Shown piece by piece: positions 8,795 through 40,813 of a stretch of DNA of 64,000 nucleotides (the first letter of the stretch is position 1; the number at the start of each line of letters is the position of its first letter). A model generated the notes under the pieces. The model was not told where the DNA came from and searched no databases. It saw nothing but the letters and a program-made list of their open reading frames with translations. Made by a program: the position numbers and the translations under genes. This DNA comes from an uncultured Verrucomicrobiae bacterium. Its GTDB lineage: Bacteria > Verrucomicrobiota > Verrucomicrobiia > Palsa-1439. The stretch covers positions 192,001-256,000 of the forward strand of contig CAWEWF010000006.1 in NCBI GenBank assembly GCA_963812605.1, read 5' to 3'.

Positions 8795-10315
8795 TCACAC
8801 CCACAACTGCCGATCCAGCGTGCGGTACTGGATGGCTTCGGAAATATGCTGGGATTGAATGCGCTCGGAACCATCCAGGTCCGCCACCGTCCGGGACACC
8901 TTCAAAATGCGGTCGTAGGCGCGGGCGCTCAAATTCAGTTCCGTCATCGCCATCTTCAGCAATTGCTGGCTTTCCTCGTCGAGTTTGCAGAATTCCTTGA
9001 TTTCTTTCGGCGACATACGTGAGTTCGTCTTCTTAAAACGCTCGCGCTGGATGACTCGCGCCGACTCGACGCGCGCGCGGATTTTCTCCGAATGTTCGCC
9101 CGTCCCCTCGCCCGCCATCTCCTTGTACTTCACGGCTGGAACCTCCACGTGGATGTCAATGCGGTCGAGCAGCGGCCCGGAAATCTTGTTGCGATATTTC
9201 GTAATCATGTTCGGTGAGCACCGGCATTCGCGCTTCGGATCGCCGTAGAATCCACAGGGACACGGATTCATGGCGGCCACCAGCATCACGTTCGCGGGAA
9301 AGGTCATCGTGCCGCTGGCGCGCGAGATCACGACGCGGCCTTCTTCCAGCGGCTCGCGCAACGCCTCGAGCACGTCGCGGTGGAATTCCGGCAATTCATC
9401 GAGGAACAGCACGCCGTTGTGCGCGAGGCTGATCTCGCCGGGCGTCAGGTTCGCCGTTCCGCCGAGCAGGCCCGCATTGCTCGTCGTGTGGTGGGGCGAA
9501 CGGAACGGACGCGTGGCGACCAGCGCCTGTCCCTTCGGCAACAACCCGAGAATGCTGTGGATCTTCGTCGTCTCCAGCGCTTCGTCGAGATTCGAATTGG
9601 GAAGAACGGTCGGAACGCGTCTGGCCAGCAACGTCTTGCCGCTGCCCGGCGGACCGATCATCAAAATATTGTGGCCGCCCGCCGCCGCGACTTCCAGCGC
9701 GCGTTTCACATGTTCCTGCCCTTTGACATCGACAAAATCAACGTCGTAGCTGCGCTGTTCCTGGAAAATCTTCTTGGGATCTTCGCGAAACGGATGCAGT
9801 TCCCGTTTGCCGGCCAGGAACTCCGCGACCTCGCGCAGATTTTTTGCCGGATACACGTCGATGCCCTGGACCACTGCCGCTTCGGGCGCGTTGTCGGCGG
9901 GAACGATCAGCCCACGCTTCTTCTGTTCGCGCGCGCAAAGCGCAATCGGCAGCACACCGTTGACGCTGCGGACTTCGCCGCTGAGCGCGAGTTCACCCAC
10001 GATGGTATAATCGTCGAGGTCTTTGGCCACGATCTGCTCGCTCACCGCAAGAATTCCCACGGCAATCGGCAGATCAAAACTCGGCCCTTCCTTTTTCACA
10101 TCCGCCGGAGCGAGGTTGATCGTCGTCCGGCCCATGACGTACTTGAACCCGCTGTTCTCGATGGCGGTCTTCACGCGGTCGCGCGACTCCTTCACCGCCG
10201 CATCCGGCAACCCGACGATGATGACCGCCGGCTGCCCCCAACCCGCGTTCACCTCAATTTCAATGGGATAGGAATCGATGCCGAGGACCGCCGCGGAATG
10301 AACTTTGGCAAGCAT
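8795..10315 (-). CDS. comM: ComM/YifB Mg-chelatase-like AAA+ ATPase
   Basis: [79 protein letters not shown]. Confidence 0.95.
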
Positions 10316-10362
10316 GACCGCAAGTAATAGTCGAATGCCCGGTCGTAAGTCGAACGAGTTTT
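10316..10362 (-). promoter_or_regulatory. Putative comM promoter (TCGACT-N18-TATTAC, 8 nt before ATG; possibly leaderless)
   Basis: Hexamers and 17-18 bp spacing are conserved in four other copies while the spacers diverge. Confidence 0.55.
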
Positions 10363-10377
10363 GTGAGGAAGCCTGTA

Positions 10378-12334
10378 CTACGGCACCAGCCGCACACGGT
10401 AGTAGCGGGAGGGGTTGTTGGTCGCGCCGCCCACATCAAGGAAGTTGGTGATGGCGCCGGGCATGGAATTATTCGTAACAACGAAGATGTTGGTGAATCC
10501 GTTCGTGGTATAACCGCCACCGGGTCCACCCGAGGTGGCCTGCAAGGCGTTCGTCTGTCCCGGGCCCATCATCCAGGTAAGGAGCAGATCGTTGCCTTGC
10601 CGTGTGATCGATATGATCCGGAATGCGTTCGTATTGAAGACAACGCTGCCGGCGATGAGCATGCCGCCCGTGTGGATGAATTGGCCACAAGCATTCGTCA
10701 AAATGAGTGAGTCGGTCTGCAGCACGCCTCCACTCAGAATCAATTGTCCGCCACGCACATCGATGAACGCGTTGTGCGCCGCGTTGGTGGCAATGAGGCT
10801 GCCACTGTCCAACTCAACCAGATTGTCGCAGGTGGGCGATTCCAGTCCCACCGTAAGGTTCGTGGCGAAAACCGACCCGCCATCGATCACCAATGAATTG
10901 CTCGACCCCCGATCACCGATCGTCAGCGCGCCATTCTGCCAAAGGCCCCCGCCAACCACTCGCACGCGGTTACTGCTGCCGCCAAGCTGGGAACCCACGA
11001 CACCCGAAGCGTCGAATACCTGGCCACCATTGCTAATCACCAGGCTGTTCCCTGCGCCCAATGACCCGACAGTGAGGGTGGAGGCGTTGCTCCACACCGA
11101 GCCGCTGCCGCTCACCACGGCATTGTTATTGGTCCCGCCGTTGTACCCGATGTAGGAGTTGTCAGTGACGACTTCGCCGCTGTTGCTGATAGTTAATGAG
11201 TTCCCAGAGCCGGAATCGCCGACATGAAGTTCCGCTGTGATCCATGATGACCCGCTGCCCTTCACAACCACTTTGTTATTGTCGGAAATCGGGCTGCCGG
11301 TGCCGATGCGACCATCACCGCTAATGACAGCGCCGCCGTTGTCGATGACCAGCGTGTTTCCACCCCCGTTACCACCGCTATAGCCAATGCCAAGCTCACC
11401 CCCCGTATTCCAGACTGATCCGCTACCAGTGACAAAAACCTCATTCCTCATGCCGCCGACAAGACCGTTGCCATCGATGGCAACGCCTCCATTGCTGACG
11501 GTCAGCGAGTTGCCGACATTGAAGTCTTCCAACCCGACAGTCAGTGTGTTCAGGTTGCTCCAGACCGACCGGAACCAGTCACAACAACGCTATTGTTGCT
11601 CCCGTAATTACCTCCAATGGCGGCACCGCCAATCCAGCCACCATCGCTGGCTATCGAGCCGCCGTTGCTGATCACCAACGAATTGCCACTGCCTGAATTG
11701 CCGATAATGAGGTCGCCAGTATTCGTCCACACGGATCCGCTGCCGGTGACCACCATGCGATTGCCGTCGCTGCCGGGGAGTTGGCCCGCTGCGGAATCCG
11801 ATGCCCGCCGTCGATCGCACCACCGCCGCTGATCACCAGTGAGTTGGCACTGCCGTAATCGCCGGTTTCCCAATCAAAAGTGATGCTCAAGACCGATCCG
11901 GTGCCGGTGACCACCACGCTGTTGTTATTGGCCCCCGGCTGGGCGCCGGCATTGAGGGCAGCGATTACTTCCGCCCCGCTACTAACGGTGAGCGAATTGC
12001 TGCTGCCGTAGTAGCCGACGAACAAACCACCAGAGTTCAGCTGGATCCACGCCGACCCGCTGCCGCTGACCACCAGGCTGTTGCCGTCAGCGCTCGCCAC
12101 ATACCCGATGTAGGCGTCATATCCGTTTGTTACAAACTGGACGCCGTCGTTGACGATTTGGAGCTGGTCACCGGAATTCGTGTCGCCGATATAGAAAAAC
12201 TGTGCGGCCCAGCCGTTGCTCACGCCGCTGATGGTAATAGTCTGGTTATCACCAGAGAATTGCGCGCGGGCAGAATTGCCGGACAAACATCCGAACAATG
12301 TGCACACAGCGACCGTCAAATGCCGTTTTATCAT
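10378..12334 (-). CDS. Secreted Gly/Ser/Asn-rich beta-strand repeat protein (T5SS/PEP-CTERM-associated repeat type) with C-terminal RYYRVRLVP domain; several frameshifts
   Basis: Signal peptide at 12334; repeats of VTGSGSVW...GxGNSLxISNGG across ORFs 11672..12448, 11550..11873 and 10378..11532. Confidence 0.75.
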
Positions 12335-12486
12335 CACCGCGCCCCTTCCCCACGCCCAGAGTGAATCTCGCCTTGTGACACCGGCACACAGTCGAACAGA
12401 AGTTACCGCAGAAGTCAAGAAAACGCTGGGCCGGACGGTATGCCCCACCCCTTCTTCGCGTAGAGCCGGCCCTTCCTACCGTGTGG

Positions 12487-12751
12487 ACATCCGCCGGCGC
12501 CAGGTTAATGGTCGTCCGCCCCATGACGTACTTGAACCCGCTGTTCCCAATGGCCGTCTTCACCCGGTCGCGCGACTCCTTCACCGCCGCGTCCGGCAAG
12601 CCCACGATAATGACCGCCGGTCTGCCTCCACCCCGCGTTCACCTCAATCTCAATGGGATAGGAATCAATGCCCAGAACCGCCGCAGAGTGAACTTTCGCG
12701 AGCATGATTGTCTCTTGTAACCGAAACGCCACCGCAAGTCGAACGAGTTTT
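12487..12751 (-). pseudogene. comM: comM 5' fragment (~73 codons, one indel) plus promoter copy
   Basis: [26 protein letters not shown].../[39 protein letters not shown]; ATG at 12705. Confidence 0.92.
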
Positions 12752-12766
12752 GCCGGAAAAGCGGGC

Positions 12767-13786
12767 TCAGCGGTCGACCGGCCCCCTGCTCTCACTATTT
12801 TCCTGGCGGTGGAGCTGCTCGAAACCGAAATCGAAAAGCGCCGTGGCATCCGTCCATTTGTTCGCGCTATGCAACAGGACCAGATACAGCTCATGGCCGT
12901 CGCGGGTGGCAGACGCGGCAAAGGTGTGTCGGGAGCGGTGCGTCCAGCCCGTCTTGGCTGGCCCCATGCCGGGATACACGCCCAGGAGCTTGTTGTGATT
13001 CTTCAGCGTTTGCGGACCGGCCGCCGTCTTCAGCGCGAGGCTGGGCGTGCAACAAATTTCGCGCAGGTCCGGCACCGCCATCGCGGCCCGAAATATTCTT
13101 AACAAATCCTCGGCGGTGGTCACCTGGCCGGGCGCGGGCAGGCCGTTCGGGTTTTTGAACAGGCTGTTGGTGCAGCCCAGTTCGCGGGCGCGGGCGTTCA
13201 TCAGCGCCACAAACTTTTCCACCGAGCCGCCCGTGTGCCGCGCCAGCGCCAGGGCGGAATCGTTGTCCGAGCCGATGAGCAGGGATTGCACCAGGGTTTT
13301 GACCGGGACAGTCTCCCCGGTTCGCAACGGAATCCGGCTGGGTTCGACGAGCGTGTCTGCCTGCTCGATGACAACTTCGCCTTCGAGGTGCGTCCTCTCA
13401 TACACCAGCAGCGCCGTTAGCAATTTGAGAGTGCTCGCCGGCGGGAAGGCCTTGACGGGATTCCGGCTGAAGAGAACCTTGCCGCTCGCGGCATCCACCA
13501 GAAGCGCGCTGCGAGCCTGCACTTTTGGATTGAGTGGCGTCAGGGCATTGGTCTGAACCGCTGCCCCAGCCAGCGGCAATTGCAGGAACAGCAGCGCGCC
13601 TACAAGAATGCGGCGAAGGTGGCACTCGGCAGCAACAGTTTTCACCCGATCACGGGATTCTTTGGCGACCGCATCGGGAGGACCAACAAGCATCACTTGT
13701 GGTTGTCCGCAAACGGAGCTGACTTCGATTTCTATCGGATAAGCGTCGATCCCGAGAACCGCGGCAGAATGAACTTTGGGCAGCAT
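12767..13786 (-). CDS. D-alanyl-D-alanine carboxypeptidase (peptidase S11) with an N-terminal ~51 aa ComM-derived segment
   Basis: STLK (SxxK), SDN and KTG motifs; begins [22 protein letters not shown]...KESRDRVKT. Confidence 0.85.
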   Translation of the reverse strand: MLPKVHSAAVLGIDAYPIEIEVSSVCGQPQVMLVGPPDAVAKESRDRVKTVAAECHLRRILVGALLFLQLPLAGAAVQTNALTPLNPKVQARSALLVDAASGKVLFSRNPVKAFPPASTLKLLTALLVYERTHLEGEVVIEQADTLVEPSRIPLRTGETVPVKTLVQSLLIGSDNDSALALARHTGGSVEKFVALMNARARELGCTNSLFKNPNGLPAPGQVTTAEDLLRIFRAAMAVPDLREICCTPSLALKTAAGPQTLKNHNKLLGVYPGMGPAKTGWTHRSRHTFAASATRDGHELYLVLLHSANKWTDATALFDFGFEQLHRQENSESRGPVDR

Positions 13787-13853
13787 CTGAAGAGTAATAG
13801 TGGAAAGCCTCGCCCAAGTCGAACGAGTTTTCTGCGATTTGACTCTGCCGCTT

Positions 13854-13883
13854 CTACGGCAAAACGTCAAAATGATGGAACCC
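13854..13883 (-). repeat. Remnant of the 3' end of the GloVer-repeat gene (GFHHFDVLP* vs GFYRFDITP*)
   Basis: 24/30 nt match to 33462-33491; both lie just upstream of a comM promoter copy. Confidence 0.6.
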
Positions 13884-14074
13884 AAATAAAGGCGGTTGGA
13901 ATATCGAGCGCCACGCTATCGGGCTTTCATACAAAGCAGCGTCTCATCGCCTTTCGCCTCGATAAGGCCATGGGCAAGGCCACCGATAATCTTCTGGCGG
14001 CCCTGCCCATACCTCTAATACCAAGGCTCGGATGAAAACACGCGCGTATCACCGCGTGCTGCCGGCCTCAACGA

Positions 14075-14785
14075 CTATGAATTGCGCCGACGACGCAGAC
14101 CGAACAATCCCGCCAAACCGGCTCCGATGACGACGAGCGACACGCTGGCAGGCTCCGGAATCAACTGGATGCTGTTGAACGTTATATCGTAATTGCCCCC
14201 GGGCATATTAGGAAGAACGGACGGATCCAGGTCAAGGTTGAACGAGTAGATGTGATCGTTTCCACCCGCAATTTTGGACATCTGCCCCGCCATGAGAGGC
14301 TCCGTCATCGTGCCCACGTTGCCATTCCATACACACTGCGGAGGACCGGTGGGATTATTGTTTGGGCCACTGTACGGCATGTTGTAATTGAATTGCGTTG
14401 GCGGAGGCAAGTCATCATTGAGCACCAACTGGCCGGGTGAGAAGTAAACCCAATTATTGATGTTTCCGTTCACCGTGATCGTGAGCTGAACTGACGTGTC
14501 AGCCGCATTCAAGGTTTGAACACCGGAGTTGATGACAAAATTGCAACCACCATAACCTCCGTTGGTCGGGGCCACAACCTCGATACCGGTCGATGTGAAA
14601 CTAATCGCGGCGCCGCCGCCGGGTGCCCAATCGCCGTAGGAACCATTCGATGAAACGTTGCTCAAATACTGACCTCCGGTGACGTATTGGGCCTGCGTCG
14701 AGCCGGCCAAGGTCAACCCAGTCACCACGGCAAGCATGGTGATCAGTTGTTTCGTTGGGGCTTTGTACTTCATAGAATACCTCAT
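14075..14785 (-). CDS. PEP-CTERM sorting domain protein
   Basis: Signal peptide; C-terminal IPEPASVSLVVIGAGLAGLFGLRRRRNS. Confidence 0.9.
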   Translation of the reverse strand: MRYSMKYKAPTKQLITMLAVVTGLTLAGSTQAQYVTGGQYLSNVSSNGSYGDWAPGGGAAISFTSTGIEVVAPTNGGYGGCNFVINSGVQTLNAADTSVQLTITVNGNINNWVYFSPGQLVLNDDLPPPTQFNYNMPYSGPNNNPTGPPQCVWNGNVGTMTEPLMAGQMSKIAGGNDHIYSFNLDLDPSVLPNMPGGNYDITFNSIQLIPEPASVSLVVIGAGLAGLFGLRRRRNS

Positions 14786-14939
14786 GTTAATCCCTTTCTC
14801 GCATTTCTCCCGTCGTTTCCAGAGAGCACACGTGCTGCGATTGTTTCCCCGCCGCACGGCTATCTGGGTTTCTCCACACTCGTCTCGCTTCGAGTGCAAA
14901 TCATACCTGAACTTGTGTCTAAAGGAACAACAACCTTAC

Positions 14940-14949
14940 TTTACGTAAA
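14940..14949. promoter_or_regulatory. Putative LacI-family operator TTTACGTAAA
   Basis: Perfect palindrome; one of six intergenic copies in the locus. Confidence 0.75.
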
Positions 14950-15102
14950 CTTGCCGACTTTTCGGCGGTTTTTCGCTTGTTTTGACATCTCCCAAAAGCC
15001 GCGGAGCGCAGCCGTTCGATAGGCTCACCGAGTCGTGAACGCAGGCTCTTGTTACTTGGTTTCCTGTCATCGTCTCGACTGTGCTCCACAGAATGTTCCA
15101 AC

Positions 15103-17691
15103 CTACGGCACCAGCACGCGCACTCGATAGTAGCGCGTCGGCCCGGTCACTACATTGGTTTCGATGAAACTCGTCACCATACCCAGGCCGCTGCCCCCGC
15201 TCAGAATGTTGGTCTGACCGGTGCTGATAAAGTTATTCGAGGAATAGCTGCCGTTGGCCGTGCCGGTGGTGAACTCCAGCACGTTGGTGCGCGAAGCGAG
15301 GCCGGGCGACCACGTGCTGTCGCCACTGGCGCCGAGATACGTGATCACCAGGTTGGCCGGGTTCGCCTTCGCAATACTAATAATGTGCGGGTAGGCCGCG
15401 CTATTGGTCGGATTGAACCCGGCCAGGAATTGGTTGGTATTGCTGATGCCCTTGCCCAGCGGATCGGCATTAGGTCCGCTGTAGGCGGGATTCCCCAGTT
15501 CAGCCATGCTGAAATAATTGCTCTGCCATGTCGCGAACGGATCTGGCGTCGCCGCACTCGCCGTCACGTCCACGATCTGCATGTCGTTCAGGAAGCCTCG
15601 ATTCCCCTGACCACCACCAAAGCCCGAACCCATGAAATCGATGTACATGGCTCCGCTGGCCGATGGAGAAATCGGGCCAATGACCGCCAGCCGGTCCACA
15701 TTAAAAGCCCCGAGGACATTACCGCCGACACAAAGGTTGGTCGAAGCGATCAGCGATGTATAATTCGTGTCACTGTACACGTTGTAGACCGTCAGGACAT
15801 CGGCGTCCGGAGGGGCATTGTAGCCATGCGAGCCGAAGAAGGTCAGCGTGTATTGGTGCGACGGATTCATGTTCTGCAGAATGAAGTGCGCATTGACATA
15901 ATACTGGCAGACGGCCGTATCGATGCCCAGGTAGCCGAGCGCGTTGGTGTTAATGATGGCGTTGGTCGGGCTACTGACGGTCCCAACCCCAAGAGGAACG
16001 GCAGCGGGGCTATTGTAAGAGTCCGCTCCAAATCGAGTGGGAACGTTCGCATTGGTGTACGCGGGTTTGCTGGTGTCGAACTTGACGGTCATCGCTGTCG
16101 CCGCGCCGGCGGCATTGGTGAGAGCAACCGGATTGCCGTAATAATTCGTGTCCATGCTGTTCCAGTAATGCCCCAAGGTATCCGGACTCGGGTTGGCGAA
16201 GCCGCGGTCGGTGGGGGGTGTGCTAGTGGAGTTAAAATTGAGCAACCAGGTCGCATTGACGGGCGGCGCCGTGGCGGCGGGGTACGGGTCCAGATCGACA
16301 AGTGACATCGTGTTTAGGTAGCCAGCATACTGCGGAGGGCCATTAGTGCAATTGCCTACGCTATTCGTTCCAAAGAATAAAATGTAGAGGACGGTGTCAG
16401 CTGGCCCCGTGATTCCGCTCGCTGTCGCCAGCCGGTCCTCATTGTTGAATTGTCCACTGCCGACTTTGAGCGTGGGCGAGGCAAGTGTGGAACCCCCACT
16501 GTTCTGGATATAGTAGGTTGTGAGTTCACTCGCCGGATACTTTATCGACCCGAAGAAGTTGAGCGCGTATTGATGCGTCGGATCCAAGTTGTCGAATACG
16601 AGTTCTTGGGATACGTAGTAGTCGGAGACGGCTGTCGGGACGCCCAGATAGCCGAGGGCGTTGGTCGCAATGTTAGAGAAGGCGTTCGTGCGAGTAGTTC
16701 CATCCGGATCGGAATCCGGCCCGTTGTAAGAGTCAAACCCGCCGCACAACCCCCCAACCGGTTCCGCAGAATACGCCACGGAGTTGATCTGGTTGACCGC
16801 GTTCGTCATGGGGAACAAAACAGCGGGGCTCACACTGTTCCAGTAATGCCCCTGGACATCCGGATTCGGCGTGACAAAGCCGTGGGTGGTGTTCGTGTTC
16901 CCCATTTGGATGAGAGTAGTCTTCGTTACGACCGAGGCGGGTGGCGGCGTATTCGTGCTCGGACCCTGCGTGAGCTGCATACAGTTGAGATAACCACCGG
17001 CTCCGTTGGTGCCGATTCCTCCATTGACGGTGTTCGTTCCCAAGAATTGGACGTAGAGGGTGCCATTCTGCGGCGGCAGGACGGTAGCGCTCACCACCAT
17101 GTTCGAGTTGGGGACTGATGGATTGGCGGGGTACTGTGCATACTCGGCAACCGCAGTTTCCAGCATGGTGTAGGCGCTGTTCGTAAAAATGGAATAGACC
17201 GTGTAATCACTTGGGCTGGCGCTATGCGACCCAAAAAAGGTGAGGGTGTACGTCCGCGATGGATACAGGTTTTGGAGTTCAAATTCGGAATTGACGTAAT
17301 AGTTATACACCGCCTGCTGAATGCCCAGGTTGCCGAGCGCATTCGTGTCGATGACGCAGTTGGCGGGGGTCCCCGGCGGAACCGGTCCGGCGGGCCCGTT
17401 GTTGGCGTCCGTATTGCCGACCTTGCCAACTTCAAATCCAAACGCCGCGGCCCAAGTTCTTCCCACCGTGCCGTCAATGTTTGTCAGAACAGGGAAGAAC
17501 TGGCTACTATCGACGCTATTCCAGTAATGCCCGTGGATGTCCGGACTGGGCGCGTTGGTGCCGTTCAAAGTCTGGTTGTCACCCATCTTGATCAAGACGG
17601 TTTGACTTTGGGCGGGCAGAACGAATCCCAGGACGAGCGTCAGCAGAGCCGCGACAAAACTGAAATTAGCTGTTACCTTGCGAATCCTCAT
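15103..17691 (-). CDS. Large secreted protein with three tandem ~200 aa repeats and a C-terminal RYYRVRVLVP domain
   Basis: Signal peptide; 3x PDxxGHYWNS...NALGxLG...YxLxFFGS...G[YF]LNxM. Confidence 0.85.
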   Translation of the reverse strand: MRIRKVTANFSFVAALLTLVLGFVLPAQSQTVLIKMGDNQTLNGTNAPSPDIHGHYWNSVDSSQFFPVLTNIDGTVGRTWAAAFGFEVGKVGNTDANNGPAGPVPPGTPANCVIDTNALGNLGIQQAVYNYYVNSEFELQNLYPSRTYTLTFFGSHSASPSDYTVYSIFTNSAYTMLETAVAEYAQYPANPSVPNSNMVVSATVLPPQNGTLYVQFLGTNTVNGGIGTNGAGGYLNCMQLTQGPSTNTPPPASVVTKTTLIQMGNTNTTHGFVTPNPDVQGHYWNSVSPAVLFPMTNAVNQINSVAYSAEPVGGLCGGFDSYNGPDSDPDGTTRTNAFSNIATNALGYLGVPTAVSDYYVSQELVFDNLDPTHQYALNFFGSIKYPASELTTYYIQNSGGSTLASPTLKVGSGQFNNEDRLATASGITGPADTVLYILFFGTNSVGNCTNGPPQYAGYLNTMSLVDLDPYPAATAPPVNATWLLNFNSTSTPPTDRGFANPSPDTLGHYWNSMDTNYYGNPVALTNAAGAATAMTVKFDTSKPAYTNANVPTRFGADSYNSPAAVPLGVGTVSSPTNAIINTNALGYLGIDTAVCQYYVNAHFILQNMNPSHQYTLTFFGSHGYNAPPDADVLTVYNVYSDTNYTSLIASTNLCVGGNVLGAFNVDRLAVIGPISPSASGAMYIDFMGSGFGGGQGNRGFLNDMQIVDVTASAATPDPFATWQSNYFSMAELGNPAYSGPNADPLGKGISNTNQFLAGFNPTNSAAYPHIISIAKANPANLVITYLGASGDSTWSPGLASRTNVLEFTTGTANGSYSSNNFISTGQTNILSGGSGLGMVTSFIETNVVTGPTRYYRVRVLVP

Positions 17692-17829
17692 GGTTTTCCC
17701 CTTCTGTTGTGCCGGCTGCAAATAATCTTCTGCCACGCCTTACCTGATCCCATCTCGCCTTGTACTTTGGAATCTACTCGTTACGAATTATCAACCCGCC
17801 TCTTTCCCGTCGCAGCTGTCCCATAATCC

Positions 17830-18633
17830 TCAGGGCAAACTATCGAAGCTGTTGAGGGCATCGCAAAATGTTTGGCTGGTGCCTTGCGCTGTGGTGATTA
17901 GTCCCACATGGCCATCCAGGTAAAGCCCCAAGGCCGCATCGCCGTATGCATAATTGAGATACTTCCAACCGTTTACTCCATCTGGCACGGGATTGGCAGT
18001 ATAGGTACCCCACTCGACCAGATCGTAGGTGCCGAAATCCGGCGAGAGCGCCCCGCCCGTCCCGACCGACCCCGTCATGATGATTGGCTCAATGTTCCCG
18101 ACCATCGCCGCGTCGCCATCGCGCCGATACTTGCACCCGCCGCCGATCAGCGCATTACAGGTATATGAGATCTGAAAGAACTTGGCCATGGCATAACTGC
18201 CGCGACCAACCAAGTGCTCTTGTTGACCGTATTTTCGAACCATGAGCGGGCACCACATCGTTTCGGCGTAGCTTGGTTTGCCCATGGTCGATATGTATGT
18301 ACCCGTTGGGTCGATAGGGATCACGCCGTAGGTGTGTTCCCAGACATTGCGCCGCCACGTGTAATCGGTGTTCCCATTGGGATTGGGAAGGTTGCCCAAC
18401 GGCTTGGGCCAATACCCGTCGAAATCGTCGACATACATACGCACCGCCAAAAAGATTTGCTTCAGATTGCTGATGGATTTCGCGGTCATCGCCTTGTCGC
18501 GGGCTTTGTTCAAAGCCGGAAGCAGCATGGCCGCCAGGATGCCGATAATCGCAATGACAACGAGCAGTTCAATGAGCGTAAACGCGCTTCTCGGCGCACG
18601 TTCTTTGAAACGAAAGCTGTTTTTATTGGTCAT
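17830..18633 (-). CDS. Prepilin-type N-terminal cleavage/methylation protein (DUF1559/H-X9-DG type)
   Basis: [25 protein letters not shown]; C-terminal LYLDGHV. Confidence 0.9.
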
Positions 18634-18761
18634 GAGTCCGCTTCCTCTGTTCCAAATCGGGAACGTGACGCTTCCCGTTCCCATCTCAAGCTTAGAAATC
18701 CCGCACTCTTCAACGATGCCCAGTCTCGCAGGTGTATCTTCCACGCGCAACGAGAAGCATA

Positions 18762-30920: not shown

Positions 30921-30922
30921 CC

Positions 30923-30932
30923 TTTACGTAAA
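30923..30932. promoter_or_regulatory. Putative LacI-family operator TTTACGTAAA
   Basis: Upstream of the GH99-like gene. Confidence 0.75.
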
Positions 30933-31019
30933 CCGGAATCGATCGTCGGTTCGTCCATTCGGCTTGATACTGTAACCTCCAGTGAACTCTCCAAACTTTC
31001 CGAAAGCCGACTCGCGCCC

Positions 31020-32310: not shown

Positions 32311-33216
32311 TCATTGACTGGTCTGATTGCGCTGCGTTCCAGCGCCTGCCACCGAACCATTTTCTTCGCGGCGGAGTTGCTCGAAACCGAAATCGAAAAG
32401 CGCTGTGGCATCCGTCCATTTGTCCGCGCTATGCAACAGGATCAGATACAGTTCGTGGCCGTCACGGGTGGCGGACGCGGCAAAGGTGTGTCGGGAGCGG
32501 TTTGTCCAGCCCGTCTTGGCCGGCCCCATGCCGGGATACACACCCAGCAGCTTGTTGTGGTTCTTCAGTGTTTGCAGACCGGCCGCCGTCTTCAGCGTGA
32601 GGCTGGGCGTGCAACAAATTTCGCGCAGGTCCAGCACCGCCATTGCCGCGCGAAATATTCGCAACAAATCATCGGCGGTCGTCACCTGGCCGGGCGCGGG
32701 CAGACCGTTCGGGTTTTTGAACAAGCTGTTGGCGCACCCCAATTCGCGGGCGCGGGTGTTCATCAGCGCCACAAACTTCTCCACCGACCCGCCCGTGTGC
32801 CGCGCCAGCGCTAGGGTGGAATCATTGTCCGAGCCGATGAGCAGGGATTGCACCAGGGTTTTGACCGGGACAGTCTCCCCGGTTCGCAAAGGAATCCGGC
32901 TGGGTTTGACGAGCGTGTCTGCCTGCTCGATGACAACTTCGCCTTCGAGGTGCGTCCGCTCGTACACCAGCAGCGCGGTCAGCAGTTTGAGAGTGCTCGC
33001 CGGTGGGAAGGCTTTGACGGGATTCCGGCTGAAGAGAACTTTACCGCTCGCGGCCTCGACCAGAAGCGCGCTGCGAGCCCGCACTTTTGGATTGGGTGCC
33101 GCCGGGGCATTGGTTCGGGCCGCTGCCCCAGCCAGCGGCAATTGCAGGAACAGCAGCGCACCGACAACAAAACGGCGCAGGTGACACGTGCCATCCTCGG
33201 GAGCAACTCCGTTCAA
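32311..33216 (-). CDS. D-alanyl-D-alanine carboxypeptidase (S11), near-identical paralog of 12767..13786
   Basis: STLK, SDN, KTG; protein nearly identical to the first copy; start uncertain. Confidence 0.85.
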   Translation of the reverse strand: MNGVAPEDGTCHLRRFVVGALLFLQLPLAGAAARTNAPAAPNPKVRARSALLVEAASGKVLFSRNPVKAFPPASTLKLLTALLVYERTHLEGEVVIEQADTLVKPSRIPLRTGETVPVKTLVQSLLIGSDNDSTLALARHTGGSVEKFVALMNTRARELGCANSLFKNPNGLPAPGQVTTADDLLRIFRAAMAVLDLREICCTPSLTLKTAAGLQTLKNHNKLLGVYPGMGPAKTGWTNRSRHTFAASATRDGHELYLILLHSADKWTDATALFDFGFEQLRREENGSVAGAGTQRNQTSQ

Positions 33217-33239
33217 ACACGCACCCCCGTGAACGCGAC

Positions 33240-33309
33240 CGCGCAGTGAACTTTCGCCAGCATGACGGCAAGTAATAGTCGAATGCGCCCCGCAAGTCGA
33301 ACGAGTTTT
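33240..33309 (-). repeat. comM promoter and first codons (MLAKVHCA)
   Basis: Closely matches 10292-10362; ATG at 33263. Confidence 0.85.
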
Positions 33310-33354
33310 CGGCGATCAGTCCCGGCAGCGTCCATCTTGGCATTATTACCGGAT

Positions 33355-33461: not shown

Positions 33462-34925
33462 CTACGGCGTAATGTCAAACCGATAGAACCCTTGCGGCTG
33501 CAACGCCCCGCCGAAATTGGTCAACGTCAGCAGAGCCCCAATGCTGTTGGTGACCGATGCGCCAAGGACATTCGACCAAGCACCGGATGTCAGGTCAGTC
33601 GTGAACTGCAATTGATAGGTCTCGTAGGCTACGGACGGGATGTTGACGGCTATATCGTTACCTGCAATTTGGACTGCTGAAATCTGATTGGCGAGAGGGG
33701 AGAGGGGAACTGTCAGTTTGAACACCGTGCCGTTGTCGTTCGCCCCGCCATAGAAGGCCGTGCCGTAGAAATTGCCGTCGCTGCCCTGTACCAGCGCGGC
33801 ATCTGGATTGTTGCCATCGGTGGGGGACGTGCCAAACGAGTAAAGATTCGTGTAGTCGCCGCTGGGGCTGATCCTAAACACGGTGCCACAATTGCAATTG
33901 GTGCTCGTCCCGCCGTAGAAGGCCGTGCCGTAGAAAAAGCCGTCGCTGCCCTGCACCAGCCCATTTGGAGGGGAACCGACAAAGGAGTAAAGATTTGTGT
34001 AGCTGCCGCTCGGACTGATCCGAAACACCGTGCCGTAGTTGTTCGTCCCGCCTCGAATGGTCGTCCCGTAGAAATTGCCGTCACTGCCTTGCACCAGCCC
34101 GGTAGATGGACGCACTCCATCGCTGAGGTGGCTGCCAAACGAGTAAAGATTCGTCTTCGTGCCGCTGGGACTGATCCGAAACACGGTGCCGCAATTGCAA
34201 AAGTTCGTCCGCCGTCTCGGTCCCGCCGTCTCGTCGGTCGTCCCGTAGAAATTGCCGTCGCTGCCCTGCACCAGCCCATTTGGAATGGACCCATCAGTGG
34301 GAAAGCCGCCAAAAGAGTAAAGATTTGTGTAGCTGCCGCTCGGACTGATCCGAAACACCGCGCCGTAGTTGTTCGTCCCGCCTCGAATGGTCGTCCCGTA
34401 GAAATTGCCGTCACTGCCCTGCACCAGCCCATTTGGAATGGACCCATCAGTGGGAAAGCCGCCAAAGGAGTAAAGATTTGTGTAGCTGCCGCTCGGACTG
34501 ATCCGAAACACCGTGCCGCACCCGCCGTTGCAATTGGTGCTCGTCCCGCCTCCATGGGCCGTCCCGTAGAAATTGCCGTCGCTGCCTTGCACCAGCCCGG
34601 CCATTGGAATGGTCCCATCGGTGGGGGAAACGACAAAGGAGGAAAGATTCGTGTAGGTGCCGCTGGGACTGATCCGAAACACGGTGCCGCAACTGCAATT
34701 GGTGCTCGCTGCATAGGCCATCCCGTAGAAATTGCCATCGCTGCCCTGCACCAGCCCAACAAATGGATAGCGTCCATCGTTTGGGGAGCCGACAAAGGAG
34801 TACAGATTCGTCTCCGTCTGGGCGTTGGCGTTGAACGTTCGACTAGCCAAGACCAACAGAATAACTCCGATGATCAAACGGAGACTCTTCTCGGTCGCCA
34901 GCCTGACATTGCTCGGTTTCTTCAT
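33462..34925 (-). CDS. GloVer (Gloeobacter/Verrucomicrobia) tandem-repeat beta-propeller protein with GFYRF tail
   Basis: Seven repeats of LVQGSDGNFYGT...GTVFRISPSGxYTNLYSF; signal peptide. Confidence 0.9.
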   Translation of the reverse strand: MKKPSNVRLATEKSLRLIIGVILLVLASRTFNANAQTETNLYSFVGSPNDGRYPFVGLVQGSDGNFYGMAYAASTNCSCGTVFRISPSGTYTNLSSFVVSPTDGTIPMAGLVQGSDGNFYGTAHGGGTSTNCNGGCGTVFRISPSGSYTNLYSFGGFPTDGSIPNGLVQGSDGNFYGTTIRGGTNNYGAVFRISPSGSYTNLYSFGGFPTDGSIPNGLVQGSDGNFYGTTDETAGPRRRTNFCNCGTVFRISPSGTKTNLYSFGSHLSDGVRPSTGLVQGSDGNFYGTTIRGGTNNYGTVFRISPSGSYTNLYSFVGSPPNGLVQGSDGFFYGTAFYGGTSTNCNCGTVFRISPSGDYTNLYSFGTSPTDGNNPDAALVQGSDGNFYGTAFYGGANDNGTVFKLTVPLSPLANQISAVQIAGNDIAVNIPSVAYETYQLQFTTDLTSGAWSNVLGASVTNSIGALLTLTNFGGALQPQGFYRFDITP

Positions 34926-35037
34926 ACCCGATGCTTCTCTCCAGCCCTTGCCTCACCCGCTCTTGCGGAGAAATCTAGCATCGCGGCAATGGTAAGTCGA
35001 GCCTTTCCAGCCGCCGACCAGGCAACAGTGATCTACT

Positions 35038-36803
35038 TCACAATCTCGGTGGCGCGGGCTTAAGGGGCGCATCCCACGCCTGCGCGCCTTGCGCTTTTAA
35101 CTTACGCTTATAAACCTTGTCGCCACACGTGGCGAACAAGGTGTCGAAACCTTCTCCACCGAAGCAGAGGTTGGATATCCGGCCATTCGGAGTGGGAATG
35201 ATGCATTGGACCGGCCGGCCTGGTCGCAAACCTGGATGCCCATTCGCGTGGCCACGTAAAGCCGGCCCTCGCGGTCAACCCGCATGCCGTCGGCTCCGCT
35301 GTCGTCAGCGCTGTCCGGCTCATGCAGCCAATAGAAGCGTTGCTTGTCGGCCAGCGTGCCGTCCTTTTGGATCTGGTAACTGTAAACCCAATGCGAGCGG
35401 TAGTCGCCGACGTAAAGCAACGTTTGATCCGGCGACAGCGCAATGCCGTCGCGAAACGCAGCCCCGTGTCCACCACATGTTTCTCGCCTCCCGCCTTGAT
35501 CAACCAGACATTGCTCGGCGCGTCAATGTTGTCGGGAGGCGGTTCCGTCACGTAGATGTCGCCAGCATGCGTCACCACCAGATCATCGCCGCGAATGCCC
35601 GTGGCAATAATCGCCGCTTCCCCGACAGCATCGTACGCAATAATTTTTTCGTACGTACCGGCGACCGCATAGAGACGCCCGTCCGGCCCAAAGGCCTGGC
35701 CGGCGCCTTTCCGGGAATCGAACAGGAACTCGCTCACCTTGCCGTCGAGGCCAATCTGGTAGGTCTTGCTGGCGGAAGTGTCGTTGAAGAAAACTTCGCC
35801 CTTCGCGTTGGCGGCCGGACCGTCGGCGGAAACGCAACTTTGCGTTACTAACTGCCAGCCTTCACCGGGAATAAGCAGCGCGGCGAGCGTGGCATTTTTC
35901 GTCTCACCAGTTTTAACCGGTTGCGGCCAGTCGTGCCACAAGCCAACGCATTGCGTCGGGGAAAATGGCTGTGCCCTGCTTGCCGGGATGCCCGCCATCC
36001 CCCCACGCATGGTTGACCTCGTAGCCGGCAAAAACCAGCGCCCGCTCCATGGTCTGGTTGGCCATCCACCAGTCGCCGCCGTAAATGTTCAGGTCACCCG
36101 ACCCATCCTGCAAAAAGACGCGGAGCGGTTTGGGCTCGAACTTGCGGATGAGCGTCGGGTAAATCTCGCCGCCGCGCAGTCCCACATACGTGCCGACGGT
36201 GGTGAAGACGCGGCTGAAAGCGTCCGGCCGTTCCCACGCCACCGTAAACGCCGCAATACCCCCGCTGCTCTCGCCGGCAATGGCGCGGTCGTTGGCGGAC
36301 TTCGACAATTTGATCGAACGCCCGTCGCTGGTGGTCTTTTCTTCCACCGCGGGCAACAACTCATCGAGAAGAAAATTGGCGTAACTGTCGCCAAGCCCGT
36401 CGAATTCGTAGCTCCGATTGAAACGGTCCAGCGCGTTGGTGGAATCATTTGCCGGCAGTCGGCCCGGTGCCACGAAGACACCGATGGTCACGGGCATCTC
36501 GCCCTTCGCAATAAGATTGTCGAACACAACGGGCGCGTTCCACCGCACCCCGTCCTGGTTCACGAACAGGCAGGCGGGTTTCGTGGGATCGTATTGCTTC
36601 GGCACGTAAACCTTCACCGCGCGCGTGGTGCCCGGAAAAATCTTCGAGTTCGCGAAGGTAAACTCCAGCACCTCGCCCTGCGGCACGTTGGTTTGAACGA
36701 CGGAATCAGGTCCCGGCTGGTAATCGTCCGCCGCGCGGACAGAGGTGGCTTCAGAAAGAAAACATGCAATAAAGAACAGGGCCAGTCGGCTCAGGGAATT
36801 CAT
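35038..36803 (-). CDS. Esterase (Fes-like) plus SMP-30/gluconolactonase fusion protein, several frameshifts
   Basis: GESSGG nucleophile elbow, NRSYEFDG; downstream GADGMRVDREGRLYVATRMGIQV and SNLCFGG in successive frames. Confidence 0.8.
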
Positions 36804-36906
36804 GGCTTCGAATCCTGTTCAATACCCGCCGCTCGTTCAAGCCATTTTTGGGCCGCTTACCTACGGCGCCAATCGTACGCCGTCGCTAGCGGGTGCGTGT
36901 TGCCAT

Positions 36907-37695
36907 TCAAAATTTCTGGGTGTGCAGCCAGGCCATGGCCTGACCGGACCAGGCATCGGTAACGCCGAAACCGTGTTTGCCGATGGGCTCCCGCAGGTAA
37001 ACAAATGGGACGTTATTTTTGATAAGGGCGGCAACGTATTGATCGGAATTGGCGACCGGAACGGTGGTGTCGCCGGTGGAATGAACGATAAAAGCCGGTG
37101 GCGTATCCTTGCTCACCTGCTTTTCGTTGCTGAGAAGCTCGATCATTTCCGGGGTGGGATTGTCGCCAAGGAGCCAGGCCCGGGAGTTCGTATGAACATT
37201 CGATCCATCCTCGAGCGTCACGACGGGATACAGCAGGACATGGAGGTCGGGACGAGAACTCACCCGTTCGATCGGGTCGCTGGACGCAGGATCGCCGGCA
37301 TCAAAGTGCGTGGCGGCAGTGCTCGCCAGGTGTCCACCGGCGGAAAAGCCGATGATGCCAATGCGCTGGGGATCCAGGCCCCACGCGGGGGCATTCGCGC
37401 GGACATAACGAATCGCGCGCTGGGCATCGTCCATTTCGGCCGGGTGGTGGTATTTCTTCCCTAGCCGGGACTTGAGAATGAAGCTGGTAATGCCGTTGGA
37501 CGCGAGCCATTGGGCCGTTGGAAGACCCTCGCGCGGGGAAAGATGCGAATAGGCGCCACCGGGCATGATAATCATCGCGGCGCCGCTGGCTTTGCCCGTC
37601 GGGGGAAGAAAAACAGTGAGGGTGGGAATATCGATGGCAGGATTATCGCCTTGCTGGAGCGGCGCCTCGGCGGGCCAAAGCCGGAGGATTTGCAA
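36907..37695 (-). CDS. Alpha/beta hydrolase (acetyl/pectin esterase-like); true start probably upstream
   Basis: PGGAY, GFSAGGHLA, DTTVP, HGFG. Confidence 0.85.
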   Translation of the reverse strand: MQILRLWPAEAPLQQGDNPAIDIPTLTVFLPPTGKASGAAMIIMPGGAYSHLSPREGLPTAQWLASNGITSFILKSRLGKKYHHPAEMDDAQRAIRYVRANAPAWGLDPQRIGIIGFSAGGHLASTAATHFDAGDPASSDPIERVSSRPDLHVLLYPVVTLEDGSNVHTNSRAWLLGDNPTPEMIELLSNEKQVSKDTPPAFIVHSTGDTTVPVANSDQYVAALIKNNVPFVYLREPIGKHGFGVTDAWSGQAMAWLHTQKF

Positions 37696-37919
37696 ATCTT
37701 CCAGCTTCGCGGGGGGATTCGTCAGGATTACGGGATCTCTTCCATCAACCAGAAAAAACAGGGACGCCCATTGATCTGTTTGGGTGTGAGTGAAACCAGC
37801 GCGAAGGGAGCATTCGTAGTCGCCGGCGCGTCAGCTGCCAACGACGCGACCCGAGTTTGGACGGCCAGAAGGATAAACGGCAGTGCGAGTAAACGTGCGC
37901 ATATGATAAAAATGTTCTG

Positions 37920-39299
37920 TCAGGGTGCGTCGCGAGTCGGCATGTTTCCACCGGTTCTTCCGACGGTGTTCGACCCTGTCGCCGGCACGACCGGTGGGCC
38001 AGCCGCGGTGGGCGGAATGGCAACCCCGCCTTCCAGTCCTTGGCCGCTAACATTATTGGTTCCCAGCAGCGGACCACTGAAACCCGTGACCTGGATATTC
38101 CGGAGTTCAGCGCCGGTGATATTGGCGAGGGTTATGCCCTTCGTGCAGGTGCCGGTGATGTCAGCCAGCAAGAGCCCATTGAGCGGCTTCACCGGGGAGA
38201 TCGCCACGGCGTTCACCAGCGTTCCGCAATTCACCCGGACATTGGTGAAACGAAAATTCTTCGCGGTGGGAATGCCCACATCGCCCATAACCGGCTCGGC
38301 GTCCTGCAAGCCGCTGTTGAGAAGGTTGATGCGCAGGAAGCCGTTCGTCCCAGTTTGAATGTCCAGGTCATTTCCGGAAATATCTTCGATAAACGCGCCG
38401 CGGCCGGGCCGGCTCTTGATGTAGATCGCGTAGGTCCTGGCCTGCTTGAAGGTACAGTGCTCGATATGCACGCCGCGAATGCCACCGGAGGTTTCACTGC
38501 CGACGCCGATACACGCAAAAATGTTGTCGGAGAAGGTGCAATCGCGAATGACCACGTCCTCGGTGGGACGCCCTTCGCGGACGGCTTCCATGCCGCGACC
38601 GGATTTGATCGCGATGCAGTCGTCGCCGGACTCGATGTCGCAGCCGTCAATGACGACATGTTTGCAAGAGTCAACGTCCACCCCGTCGCTGTTGCCGCCG
38701 ATGCTGCGAATGGTGACGTTTTTCACCACCACGTTTTCACAGTAGGTCGGATGAATCGTCCACATGCGCTTCTGTTTTGCGGTGAAACCTTCCAGGCGAA
38801 CATCCTGGCATTCGATCGGCTCGATGACGCATGGGCGTCGTGGCATCTGCCGGCCACCGATGGTCAGGTCGCCGGCAATCGTGCCCGGGCCAACGACGGC
38901 GATATGGTTCGCCTGACGCGCGGAAACCAGCGCGCGATGCACATCAATCCAGCGGCCTTCCCAGCGGCCCTTCACAATTGGATAATCGTCGAGATCGGCG
39001 CTGCCGAGCAGCGTCGCGTCCTTTTCAATGCGGAGTGTCGTGCGGGATTTCACATCGAGGCTGCCGGTAAGATAATCGCCGGCGGGCACGACCACGGTGC
39101 CTCCACCCGCCGCGGCGCAACGGTCAAGCGCGGCCTGGATTGCAGCCGTGTCCTTGGTCTTCCCATCGCCCACCGCCCCCGACTCGCGGACATTGAATAG
39201 CGCTTTGGACTGGTTGCTGGAACCAACGCATCCAGACAAGACAACGAACAAGAGCAGCGGAATCAGGCAGAATGGTTTGAGTGCCATTGGATTTTTCAT
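37920..39299 (-). CDS. GH28 polygalacturonase-family protein
   Basis: GDGKTKDTAAIQAA, NSDGVD, GDDCIAIKSG, GSETSGG, IKS; lipobox LSGC. Confidence 0.9.
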   Translation of the reverse strand: MKNPMALKPFCLIPLLLFVVLSGCVGSSNQSKALFNVRESGAVGDGKTKDTAAIQAALDRCAAAGGGTVVVPAGDYLTGSLDVKSRTTLRIEKDATLLGSADLDDYPIVKGRWEGRWIDVHRALVSARQANHIAVVGPGTIAGDLTIGGRQMPRRPCVIEPIECQDVRLEGFTAKQKRMWTIHPTYCENVVVKNVTIRSIGGNSDGVDVDSCKHVVIDGCDIESGDDCIAIKSGRGMEAVREGRPTEDVVIRDCTFSDNIFACIGVGSETSGGIRGVHIEHCTFKQARTYAIYIKSRPGRGAFIEDISGNDLDIQTGTNGFLRINLLNSGLQDAEPVMGDVGIPTAKNFRFTNVRVNCGTLVNAVAISPVKPLNGLLLADITGTCTKGITLANITGAELRNIQVTGFSGPLLGTNNVSGQGLEGGVAIPPTAAGPPVVPATGSNTVGRTGGNMPTRDAP

Positions 39300-39303
39300 C
39301 GAC

Positions 39304-40766
39304 TTATTTTGCCTCAGGTTGTTCTGTCGCCTTGGAAGCCGCGTCCGATGGAAATTGGTCGAATCGCCTTTCGACTTCCTTGCCGCGTAGTTGTTTGTCG
39401 GCAAAGTCCAGCATCGCCTTCAAATCTTCTGGAGTGAACGCATGGCCGTGATTCGCGTAGTTTACGCCGAGACGGTCCGTGGCGTCGAACAGCGCGTAAG
39501 CGGGGCGCGCGCCCAGCCAGGACTGCTTGACCGCGTTCTCCAGGGACACCTGGTCGGTCAAGCCTTCGAGGGCGATGAATGGCCGCGGGGCGACGAGCGC
39601 GAGAAACCAGTGCTCGTCAAACGGCAACTGGTCTACGTGCCCCCAAAATTCGTGAAGGTGCGGCGAAAACCAGTTCGGATACTTCTTCATCATGTCGGCC
39701 AGGCCCTCTTTGCCGCCACGTCCCGCGCCGCTAAAACGGTAGGCGCCAATGCCGCCACCACCGGTTACGCATGGCGCCGCCATGGCCAGTCGGTCATCAA
39801 AAGCCGCGGCAATCATCGCCGATTTACCCGTGCGCGACACACCCGAGACAATCAGCTTGGTCTTGTCCACCAGCGGGTCGGTTTCGAGATAATCCACAAT
39901 GCGGGACACACCCCACGCCCATCCCGCGAGCACTCCCCAGTCATGCCCGGGATACGCGGGATAAAATCGCGTCGTACGAAAAGCCCAGGCACCGTCTTCA
40001 TTGCGCAACGTCGTGTCCTCGGCGCAATCATTGTTGTTGAACACAACGTAGGCATAACCGCGGCGAAACAATTCGCGGTTCCGCCCGGCCACCGCTTCAG
40101 GATCTGCGTTATCCAATCGACCGCGACGCCCGGCGGCGGATTGGTGGAATTCACGGAACTGGCTGCCTCGTTGGTGGATGGCGTGATTGGCACGACCGGC
40201 AACAAGGCGTCAACACCTTTGCCCTGCCCCGGCGGGTGTGCCAATGTCGGCAGGGGCGTGGCTCCGGGGGGTGTTCCGCCCGGCATGATCACCGCCGGGA
40301 ATGGCCCCGGACCGTCCGTGGGTGTGAAGATGCCGATGTCCAACTCCAGTTTCCCTTTTGGCCCGAAGGTGAGGTGAACCAGCCGATATTTCACTTTCCC
40401 ATCCAGCACCAACTGCGATTTGATCTCCTCCCCCTTCACGTTTCCCGGCGGAGGCGGCATCTGGCCAATAGCGTAATACTCAAGGATTCGTTTAATCTCT
40501 TCGCGGCGGTTTTTCCACTGCTTGACCGTCGTGACCTTTTGCCCGCTGTTCATCGTCAGCGCGTCAGGCAAGTCAGCGTGAACCGGCAAATCCTTCACGC
40601 CCGGCAACACGCCCACCCTGGTATTGATCGGGGGCAGCGGAATTTCTCGCGGGTCCGGTCCACTGCTGGAGTTGGTCGATTGGCCTTCGGCCGGGCCCGG
40701 CCAAAGTCCAACCATCACGAAAAACATTACCCCAAGAAGCGCCGCGGAGCGAACTTTCGGGAGCAT
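39304..40766 (-). CDS. CE15/glucuronoyl-esterase-like hydrolase whose N-terminus derives from the comM start (frameshift near 40110)
   Basis: AWGVSRIVDYL, GVSRTGK, LVAPRP; begins MLPKVRSAALLGV. Confidence 0.8.
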
Positions 40767-40813
40767 GGCTGCAACTAATAGACTATTGACTCACGGAAGT
40801 CGATTGGGTTTTT
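40767..40813 (-). promoter_or_regulatory. Degenerate comM-type promoter (TCGACT-N17-TATTAG)
   Basis: Same geometry as the other copies, ahead of an MLPKVRSAA start. Confidence 0.55.

Follow-up and report, generated by a model that had tools for sequence, protein, structure and literature searches.

How did the beginning of a single gene come to be repeated, always in the same orientation, along some 30 kb of a bacterial chromosome? The question is raised by a 64,000-nucleotide stretch of DNA (the window) from an uncultured Verrucomicrobiae bacterium (assembly GCA_963812605.1, contig CAWEWF010000006.1, positions 192,001 to 256,000), in which about 30 kb of mainly sugar-degrading gene blocks lie between yraN and comM, every block being delimited by a stranded repeat of the comM start. 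The reading favored here, with a probability of roughly 0.55, is that comM was hit serially by elements carrying a large serine recombinase (LSR) and was rebuilt from foreign 5′ ends, and that the recombinase would then have been lost and the array reshuffled by homologous recombination. Throughout, G000 is the genome holding the window (15 contigs, 4.17 Mb, 90% completeness), other G numbers denote relatives, L numbers denote the loci scanned (n = 64; L058 and L059 are metagenome contigs), and W12705 is the window copy with its ATG at 12705.

A repeat search with alignment placed five direct copies of a unit, comprising about 55 nucleotides (nt) of upstream sequence and the comM start codon, on the minus strand of the window. 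Their ATGs lie at 10315 (intact comM), 12705 (confirmed on the sequence), 13786, 33263, and 40766, as a first-pass annotation of this DNA had proposed. When the comM 5′ region was queried by blastn against the whole 4.17-Mb genome, only these five places rose above noise (E = 0, 7e-80, 2e-17, 2e-16, and 7e-4), and for the weakest, 40766, matching copies in G004 (E 1e-12) and G006 (E 2e-9) lend support. The intact gene (8795–10315, minus strand; 506 amino acids (aa); Pfam ChlI, Mg_chelatase, and Mg_chelatase_C, E 1e-95) is 82–95% identical to the intact comM of genus members and of the family's other genera. Retained comM coding length drops as distance from the intact gene grows, as had also been claimed: about 72 codons with one frameshift at 12705, about 51–61 at 13786, about 8 at 33263, and 12 at 40766. 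The accompanying count of five separate acquisition events was too high, since copies 13786 and 33263 join paralogous S11 peptidase genes at a single common junction and are therefore not independent.

The repeated unit is identified most readily from array-free relatives. In three genomes from other genera of the same family (G024, G020, and G019) the gene order is p213–yraN–comM, with the yraN stop 10 nt before the comM ATG, and in G026, from a different family of the same order, yraN ends about 58 nt before it. Translation shows that AAAAC.C.TTCGACTT...TATTA, the block conserved upstream, encodes the C terminus of YraN, ...IQNAFDLSEPFIY*. On this evidence each unit is a copy of the yraN–comM junction, made up of the last ~50 nt of yraN, the 10-nt spacer, and the first comM codons. 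The only complete yraN in the G000 genome (UPF0102; 42432–42851, minus strand; PF02021, E 4e-28), with the same C terminus, lies 32 kb from comM, and a convergent cytochrome P450 gene (41090–42442, plus strand; Pfam p450, E 4e-82) sits between it and copy 40766. The first-pass placement of the cargo between yraN and comM is supported. According to a preprint, YraN is a nuclease that works with the ComM helicase to resolve transformation D-loops (bioRxiv 10.1101/2024.02.06.579203).

The repeated block had first been taken for the comM promoter, a label that does not suit the coding end of yraN. A σ70 consensus scan of positions 8000–14200 gave no promoter at copies 10315, 12705, or 13786, and a σ70 promoter at these three copies was rejected, although verrucomicrobial promoters may differ. 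It was correctly noted at the time that both hexamer-like parts of the block are better preserved than the spacer among stranded copies, and because they outlast it, a promoter embedded in the end of yraN is possible.

The individual copies differ in state. Copy 1 is a stranded yraN 3′ end (~50 nt) plus spacer abutting intact comM upstream (10316–10367, minus strand; alignments and yraN translation). Copy 3 (13638–13840, minus strand; alignments) holds a yraN 3′ end and about 51 decayed comM codons fused to the first S11 gene; upstream of it is the decayed remnant of a '...FDVLP*' gene end. Copies 4 and 5 were found by repeat search, alignment, and blastn: copy 4 (33239–33316, minus strand), with a yraN 3′ end and about 8 comM codons, is a deletion derivative of the copy-3::S11 junction, and copy 5 (40732–40812, minus strand) has a yraN 3′ end, the comM ATG, and 12 codons. 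The second copy, W12705, is best described together with the site at which it ends.

Ten of ten sites carrying a characteristic tail (W12705, seven in the sister species G012, and one each in L058 and L059) break at one comM nucleotide, within codons 69–72, and comM-derived sequence precedes the tail at every one of them. The last comM sequence before the tail is ...GCGCCGGCGGATGT, and the sites read ...GCGCCGGCGG(A/G)T(G/C)T followed by YCAC-N4/5-TA[AG]GAAGG[AG]CCG[AG], often then TAG. The tail is conserved over ~21–25 nt, with a variable middle of 5 nt between two conserved parts, and beyond it the ten sites fall into six unrelated flank classes. It was found nowhere else in the G000 genome or the 64 loci scanned, and wider contig searches returned its pattern only in three contigs of one verrucomicrobial assembly and two short metagenome contigs. 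A candidate intact attP at G012 C22:9300–9345 was rejected, since the site proved to be one more truncated attL, retaining ~20 nt of comM. No tRNA or tRNA fragment was detected by ARAGORN beside the tails in 15 loci or in the window; a relaxed run gave one doubtful call within the W12705 cargo.

The comM motif A[AG]GAAGG[AG]CC recurs in the tail, displaced outward by 5 bp. It stands at offset 28 in all three intact comM genes examined and at 33 in six of six G012 fragments; in W12705, where 1 nt has been deleted, the offset is 32. In large serine integrases, as described by Rutherford et al. (2013, PMC3783163), half-sites span 25 bp and the zinc-ribbon motif lies 5 bp nearer the center in attB than in attP. 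The tail is thus best read as carrying features of an attP half-site of an LSR, the shifted motif being a putative attP-versus-attB signature. The corresponding putative attB would occupy codons ~61–80 of intact comM (10076–10135, minus strand; core GCTCCGGC, B′ motif AGGAAGGGCC), the only window match to the codon 72–81 pattern. Copy 2 (12466–12752, minus strand) then resembles an attL scar, as judged from alignments, blastn, and the tail and codon-position analyses: the yraN 3′ end at 12706–12752, comM codons 1–72 with one frameshift at 12487–12705, the core GCGCCGGC at 12493–12500, and the P′-type tail at 12466–12486.

A relative in which comM is split provides a live example. In G002, contig C161 holds the native upstream sequence, comM codons 1 to ~71, and a homologous tail, TGT-T8-GTAGGAGGAGCCGG, whereas contig C63 holds comM from codon ~69 onward, separated by ~190 nt from a gene for a Resolvase plus Recombinase protein that is read away from the junction. 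The flank beyond the G002 attL adds a seventh class, and when its two element arms are aligned as an inverted repeat, 17 of 25 positions agree. G002 thus has a true LSR insertion, at the site where the stranded copies break, and the array tails are homologous to its P′ arm. The first-pass description of an integrase-free, integron-like array is not supported, the array being integrase-free in its present state only: the scars end at one nucleotide with an attP-like tail, and comM of a relative is split there beside a recombinase. The enzyme is absent today, rather than having been dispensable. A Resolvase plus Recombinase gene next to the junction was found in G002 and not in the window or the G012, G004, and G006 arrays. 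Likewise, attR is present in G002 only; each locus has one B′ arm, always within intact comM, and the blocks lie between attL-type sites and a regenerated target. A decoy-attB model, with integration into extended fragments, was ruled out, there being no second B′ arm in the window or loci. The statement that the window contains neither recombinase nor transposase was borne out for the former, with none of the 12 Phage_integrase (PF00589) and neither of the two Resolvase (PF00239) matches of the genome falling in it; for DDE transposases it extends to Pfam scans of the larger open reading frames (ORFs) in the window.

The alleles of the stranded 5′ ends were compared with intact comM of their own genome by counting differences at codon positions 1/2/3 over 216 nt. 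W12705 gave 1/1/21, in agreement with the earlier remark that its changes are mostly synonymous, and the G012 fragments gave 1/0/7, 1/0/18, 1/2/12, and 2/0/20; the G002 fragment, set against intact comM of G005, gave 1/1/22. ComM residues 1–73 are almost invariant across the family. The nearest allele is often the intact comM of a different species, G012_C20a being 95.8% identical to that of G000 and G012_C20b 93.1% identical to that of G006. From this third-position bias and the nearest alleles in other species, it follows that the fragments diverged under purifying selection, mostly inside working genes. Codon-position-neutral decay, which had been named as a sign of plain duplication, does not describe W12705; the old copy 13786, at 20/18/53, has decayed at all positions. 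Over these 216 nt the window copies share 58–89% identity with the 5′ end of intact comM, and those nearer comM are younger. Mosaic alleles occur inside the unit in G012_C20b and G006, and G012_C22c agrees with the intact gene at 100% of the same 216 positions. Later reshuffling by homologous recombination is directly visible in the common S11 junction, the G012_C22c identity, and the truncated scar.

Compared with G000, comM of G004 is 76% identical over nt 1–100, 60% over nt 101–207, and 89–93% from nt 208, with the break at the putative core, which is consistent with an exchange there. A deeply divergent "type II" comM 5′ allele was observed in this gene (L052, nt 1–207), in G012 C22a, C23a, and C18, and in the window at 13638–13786. 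In G004 and G012_C22a, residues ~60–67, just left of the putative crossover, read ASKKLVLN in place of the VMGRTTIN of other alleles.

The unit is present in all 18 genomes of the genus, and extra copies with comM 5′ sequence occur in five members (G000, G012, G004, G006, and G017). In G016 and G001 a second match covers the yraN-end part only, and in G002 the sole unit match is the stranded 5′ fragment. The yraN–comM interval, closed to a 10-nt gap in sister genera where yraN directly precedes comM, measures 1.4 kb in G005, 4.3 in G013, 5.9 in G004, 6.3 in G006, 8.6 in G003, 10.8 in G014, 14.5 in G009, and 32 in G000. It is not a static arrangement, differing in every genus member examined, and its blocks are nested across members. 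A single G004 contig reads yraN–P450–copy::CE15–GH28–BD-FAE–copy–comM; G006 has this order minus the P450 gene, of which a ~100-nt 3′ remnant persists. Contig C20 of G012 runs from CE15 through the 487-aa protein, a copy, GH99 to PEP-CTERM, and another copy, like G000 minus the S11 genes.

These data suggest the following history. Members of an LSR element family would integrate inside comM at codons ~69–71, each hit stranding the resident yraN-end/comM-start segment as an attL, that is, comM up to the crossover plus the P′ half-site of the element. The gene would then be made whole by a fresh yraN-end/comM-start segment from another lineage, and two routes to this may be envisaged. In one, a composite element would take the proximal block together with a unit copy by excision through the outer attL, and after integration of the composite in a new host its recombinase-bearing core would leave through the inner attL. 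In the other, comM would be mended by recombinational repair with foreign DNA. Both would bring in a donor comM 5′ allele and strand the old one, in keeping with the first-pass proposal. Either way, the P′-side cargo of the element would be retained and its recombinase end lost, and repetition would stack blocks with the youngest beside comM. The ~270-nt repeats could then feed homologous recombination, giving the S11 module duplication, deletions, and mosaic alleles. We infer both that each tail marks its own integration and the manner in which comM was rebuilt. The first-pass idea of serial, polarized growth is supported to the extent that nearer copies are younger and blocks are nested, but not as five independent events nor as an integron-like process.

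Several points weigh against this history. In canonical LSR integration attB is not regenerated, and the rebuilding of comM has therefore to be inferred. Allowing ≤3 mismatches, no attR-type remnant (a second B′ arm) turned up in the window, and none was found in the loci; tblastn with the G002 and G013 enzymes and PF00239 revealed no LSR gene or remnant in the window or any array locus. The closest G000 match to the G002 enzyme by tblastn is 21% identical, so that a close homologue was not found there, and at E ≤ 1e-40 the enzyme occurs in two of 47 genomes of the order, the second being only 35% identical. The motif shift in G002 is +4 (offset 32 versus 28), with the two halves on separate contigs. 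Should the tails all go back to a single ancestral fragment, the +5 shift would count once, not seven times. The sharp discontinuity at the core is seen in one gene only, that of G004, and the G012 assembly, which provides many of the copies, is fragmented and may mix strains.

Part of this evidence could be met without any recombinase. One ancestral truncated comM fragment might have been copied with its neighbors, the tail being kept by descent; the ~270-nt repeats would be portable homology, blocks looping out and re-entering by RecA-dependent recombination, either Campbell-type or during transformation. Such homologous cassette traffic would account readily for the mosaic alleles within the repeat, the complete identity of G012_C22c over 216 nt, the S11 module copied between two repeats, and the one-gene unit in L058 (tail–flank–gene–unit–comM), and it sits well with arrays in G000, G012, G004, and G006 that have no recombinase in cis and with the further ~60 nt left of many copies that is also common to them, a '...GFYRFDITP*' gene end. 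It fits the tail less well. The flanks form six unrelated classes that all begin within a few nt of where the tail stops, a pattern not predicted by random rearrangement; the tail shares homology with the P′ arm at the real LSR insertion of G002; its bipartite conservation around a variable 5-nt middle comes with the +5 motif shift; and the G004 allele changes abruptly at the core. We consider this explanation somewhat unlikely, albeit one to be taken seriously. The left end of the unit has its own claim as an insertion point, its AAAACTCGTTCGACTT block being the best conserved part across the five copies, and a trans-acting tyrosine recombinase or integron integrase inserting cassettes there might be sought among the twelve PF00589 matches elsewhere in the G000 genome. 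That block, however, is yraN C-terminal coding sequence conserved before comM in array-free genera, the left edge is not fixed there given the ~60 nt common further leftward, and none of the 81 PF00589 matches listed in five relatives lies on an array contig. A tyrosine integrase was rejected as the agent, none lying in the window or on array contigs, and the trans-acting variant is very improbable.

A static arrangement in which local tandem duplicates decayed neutrally merits equally little credence: copies 13786 and 33263 do duplicate one junction, and copy 13786 has decayed at all codon positions, but the 1/1/21 of W12705, an interval that differs in every genus member examined, and fragments often nearer the alleles of other species than those of their own genome all speak against it. 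That the array is an assembly chimera of coexisting strains joined at repeats is scarcely credible. A 15-contig assembly at 90% completeness leaves some room for it, and in public reads the four soil runs matched contained ≤0.17 of sampled words, their contigs on 8000–16000 being short and of low depth, with none seen to span a repeat copy. Conversely, copies only 58–89% identical to the intact 5′ end are too diverged to collapse, and matching order in separate assemblies argues against a chimera: G012 C20 carries two copies with the same intervening cargo, and the G004 contig holds yraN–P450–copy::CE15...copy–comM in one piece.

The serial LSR reading can be set beside described systems, of which gene-splitting LSR insertions and tandem ssrA islands are the closest. 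As reported for the former (A118-type phage integrases; PMC3783163), the crossover is fixed inside coding sequence, conservation extends over a ~25-bp half-site, and the motif on the element arm is displaced outward by 5 bp; the G002 attP arms (17/25) may similarly be pseudo-palindromic, and its recombinase gene adjoins one junction. Unlike those cases, the host gene here is whole again, with several attL-type scars and cargo, the arrays contain no attR or recombinase, and, in departure from ordinary LSR integration, the target is regenerated and scars are stacked. The ssrA islands of Dehalococcoides are serial islands at a single-copy gene, with CcrB-like serine recombinases (PMC3146451). By that account each is bounded by a direct repeat of the gene end with the youngest adjoining the gene, as here, and some without an integration module are read as cis-mobilizable. 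Their repeat is ~20 bp of the 3′ end, in contrast to ~270 nt of 5′ end plus the 3′ end of a neighboring gene, and, unlike in them, the target lies 70 codons inside comM, so that a long replacement piece is needed. In the tandem accretion of cis-mobilizable integrative and conjugative elements, recombinase-less blocks with flanking attachment sites could ride with a neighboring competent element (Pavlovic et al. 2004, via PMC3146451), much as in the composite pick-up and drop-off model above. The known cases differ in using tyrosine recombinases and in that attL and attR stay substrates. SCCmec and pseudo-SCC composites at rlmH are a similar serial case. Islands of the dusA type integrate in the 5′ end of a gene and bring a replacement 5′ end, by tyrosine integrases and with one element per site; as here, the gene stays intact and its former 5′ end, once displaced, remains on the far side. 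With integrons the array has in common its polarity, the newest cassette being proximal, and the reuse of one expression signal, yet it has no IntI, its repeats are copies of a gene junction where integrons have attC sites, and its multi-gene cassettes lie on both strands. What sets the locus apart is a site 70 codons into a gene, a ~270-nt replacement 5′ end with the tail of a neighbor, and stacking without a resident recombinase. No account of stacked comM 5′ fragments was found in the literature covered, which was partial and excluded supplements.

comM is described as a favored target of mobile elements, its loss lowering transformation with heterologous DNA, and in Acinetobacter (AbaR and others) recovery of comM by recombination with foreign DNA has been raised (PMC11472951). 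Relative to those reported cases the phylum, recombinase, and site are different here, and repair has left a layered record. The locus would be such a record of repeated comM hits and repairs in an uncultured soil lineage, in which dated scars stand alongside donor alleles and retained cargo; it would show by what means competence genes can be recovered without giving up useful cargo (carbohydrate-active enzymes) and how stranded gene starts turn into expression signals for new genes. If rebuilding was simple recombinational repair, this is a neat but ordinary hotspot; if recombinase-driven, LSR elements can accrete and mobilize neighbors, with a bearing on island growth and on use of these enzymes as tools. 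A more ambitious version, which we hold to be unlikely, is a serine-integrase counterpart of the integron platform, in which composite elements carry a spare yraN-end/comM-start behind the cargo and, once integrated at comM codon ~70, lose their core through the inner attL, leaving the cargo in place, comM rebuilt from the donor 5′ end, and attB regenerated for another round. An LSR attL needs attR and a directionality factor to recombine, and such cis-mobilization by an LSR would fall outside textbook directionality rules; the platform would act at the very YraN nuclease/ComM helicase pair with which the host can rid itself of mobile DNA by transformation.

Other parts of comM may also be targets. 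In G013 comM (L047, G013:C20, 1–1995) ends at residue 354 (...VAAMNP), and after it comes a 514-aa Resolvase plus Recombinase plus Zn-ribbon protein, and stray comM pieces of residues 354–506 lie beside pyruvate-dehydrogenase genes in G015 and G011 (L049 14286–14792; L050 4860–5366). The G013 site appears to be a second LSR target inside comM. Contig C3 of G000 encodes an enzyme 50% identical to the G013 recombinase. A third large serine recombinase type was seen in L032 (G012:C23; 1410–3100 and 9538–9777), ~6.5 kb away from a tailless comM fragment broken at codon ~81, beside tRNA-His and tRNA-Arg. At the other end of the gene, a second copy of the last 16 comM codons plus stop lies 558 nt past the real stop (8235–8287, minus strand; repeat family D20, 94%; tblastn). 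The end repeats at 8235–8287 and 8793–8845 bracket a ~505-nt insert with a small hydrophobic ORF, and a like repeat lies 1.6 kb downstream in G012 (L036 1516–1564 and 3145–3193). The comM 3′ end is a second insertion site by this sequence evidence.

The cargo itself begins with block 1 (10378–12448, minus strand), a repeat protein ending YYRVRLVP* that matches no Pfam family and is now two ORFs (10378–11532 and 11672–12448). A metagenome contig of a relative reads through both with indels, and they are probably one broken gene. The S11 D-Ala-D-Ala carboxypeptidase paralogues follow on the minus strand, the first (12767–13637; Pfam Peptidase_S11, E 1e-43) in frame with copy 3 and the second (32311–33216; repeat family D4, Pfam) 92% identical to it over 300 nt. 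Between them, at 14075–32264, Pfam searches identified a PEP-CTERM protein, an 877-aa protein, an N_methyl protein, HAD, a split GH65, two α-1,3-glucanases, LacI, and GH99; this block is syntenic with G012 contig C20, where it lies between two stranded copies. The split in the GH65 phosphorylase (19569–21895), whose N-domain ORF (21248–21895) overlaps the catalytic ORF (19569–21395), is likely a frameshift. Internal repeats of the two α-1,3-glucanase genes (24576–29805; families D1, D5, and D16) are 73–91% identical, so the genes appear to be recent paralogues. The distal block (33462–40731, minus strand; Pfam), which also adjoins yraN in G004 and G006, comprises a 487-aa repeat protein, a 307-aa ORF, an esterase, a BD-FAE hydrolase, GH28, and a CE15 glucuronyl esterase. 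The last (39304–40766) consists of overlapping ORFs at 39304–40116 and 39852–40766 and is probably frameshifted. Its ORF begins with the comM ATG and first 12 codons of copy 5 (MLPKVRSAALLG...), a fusion kept in G006 and G004, and some stranded comM starts have thus been reused by cargo genes.

Smaller features of the blocks were also seen in relatives. The last gene of most blocks has a '...FYR....P*' C terminus, and a small G012 block (L031, G012:C22, 575–3324) encodes a Peptidase_S74 (endosialidase chaperone) domain protein of 612 aa and another of 304 aa with the ending KFYRVDISLP*. The short interval of G005 holds three tandem cysteine-rich small ORFs of ~80 aa (L042, 16943–18310).

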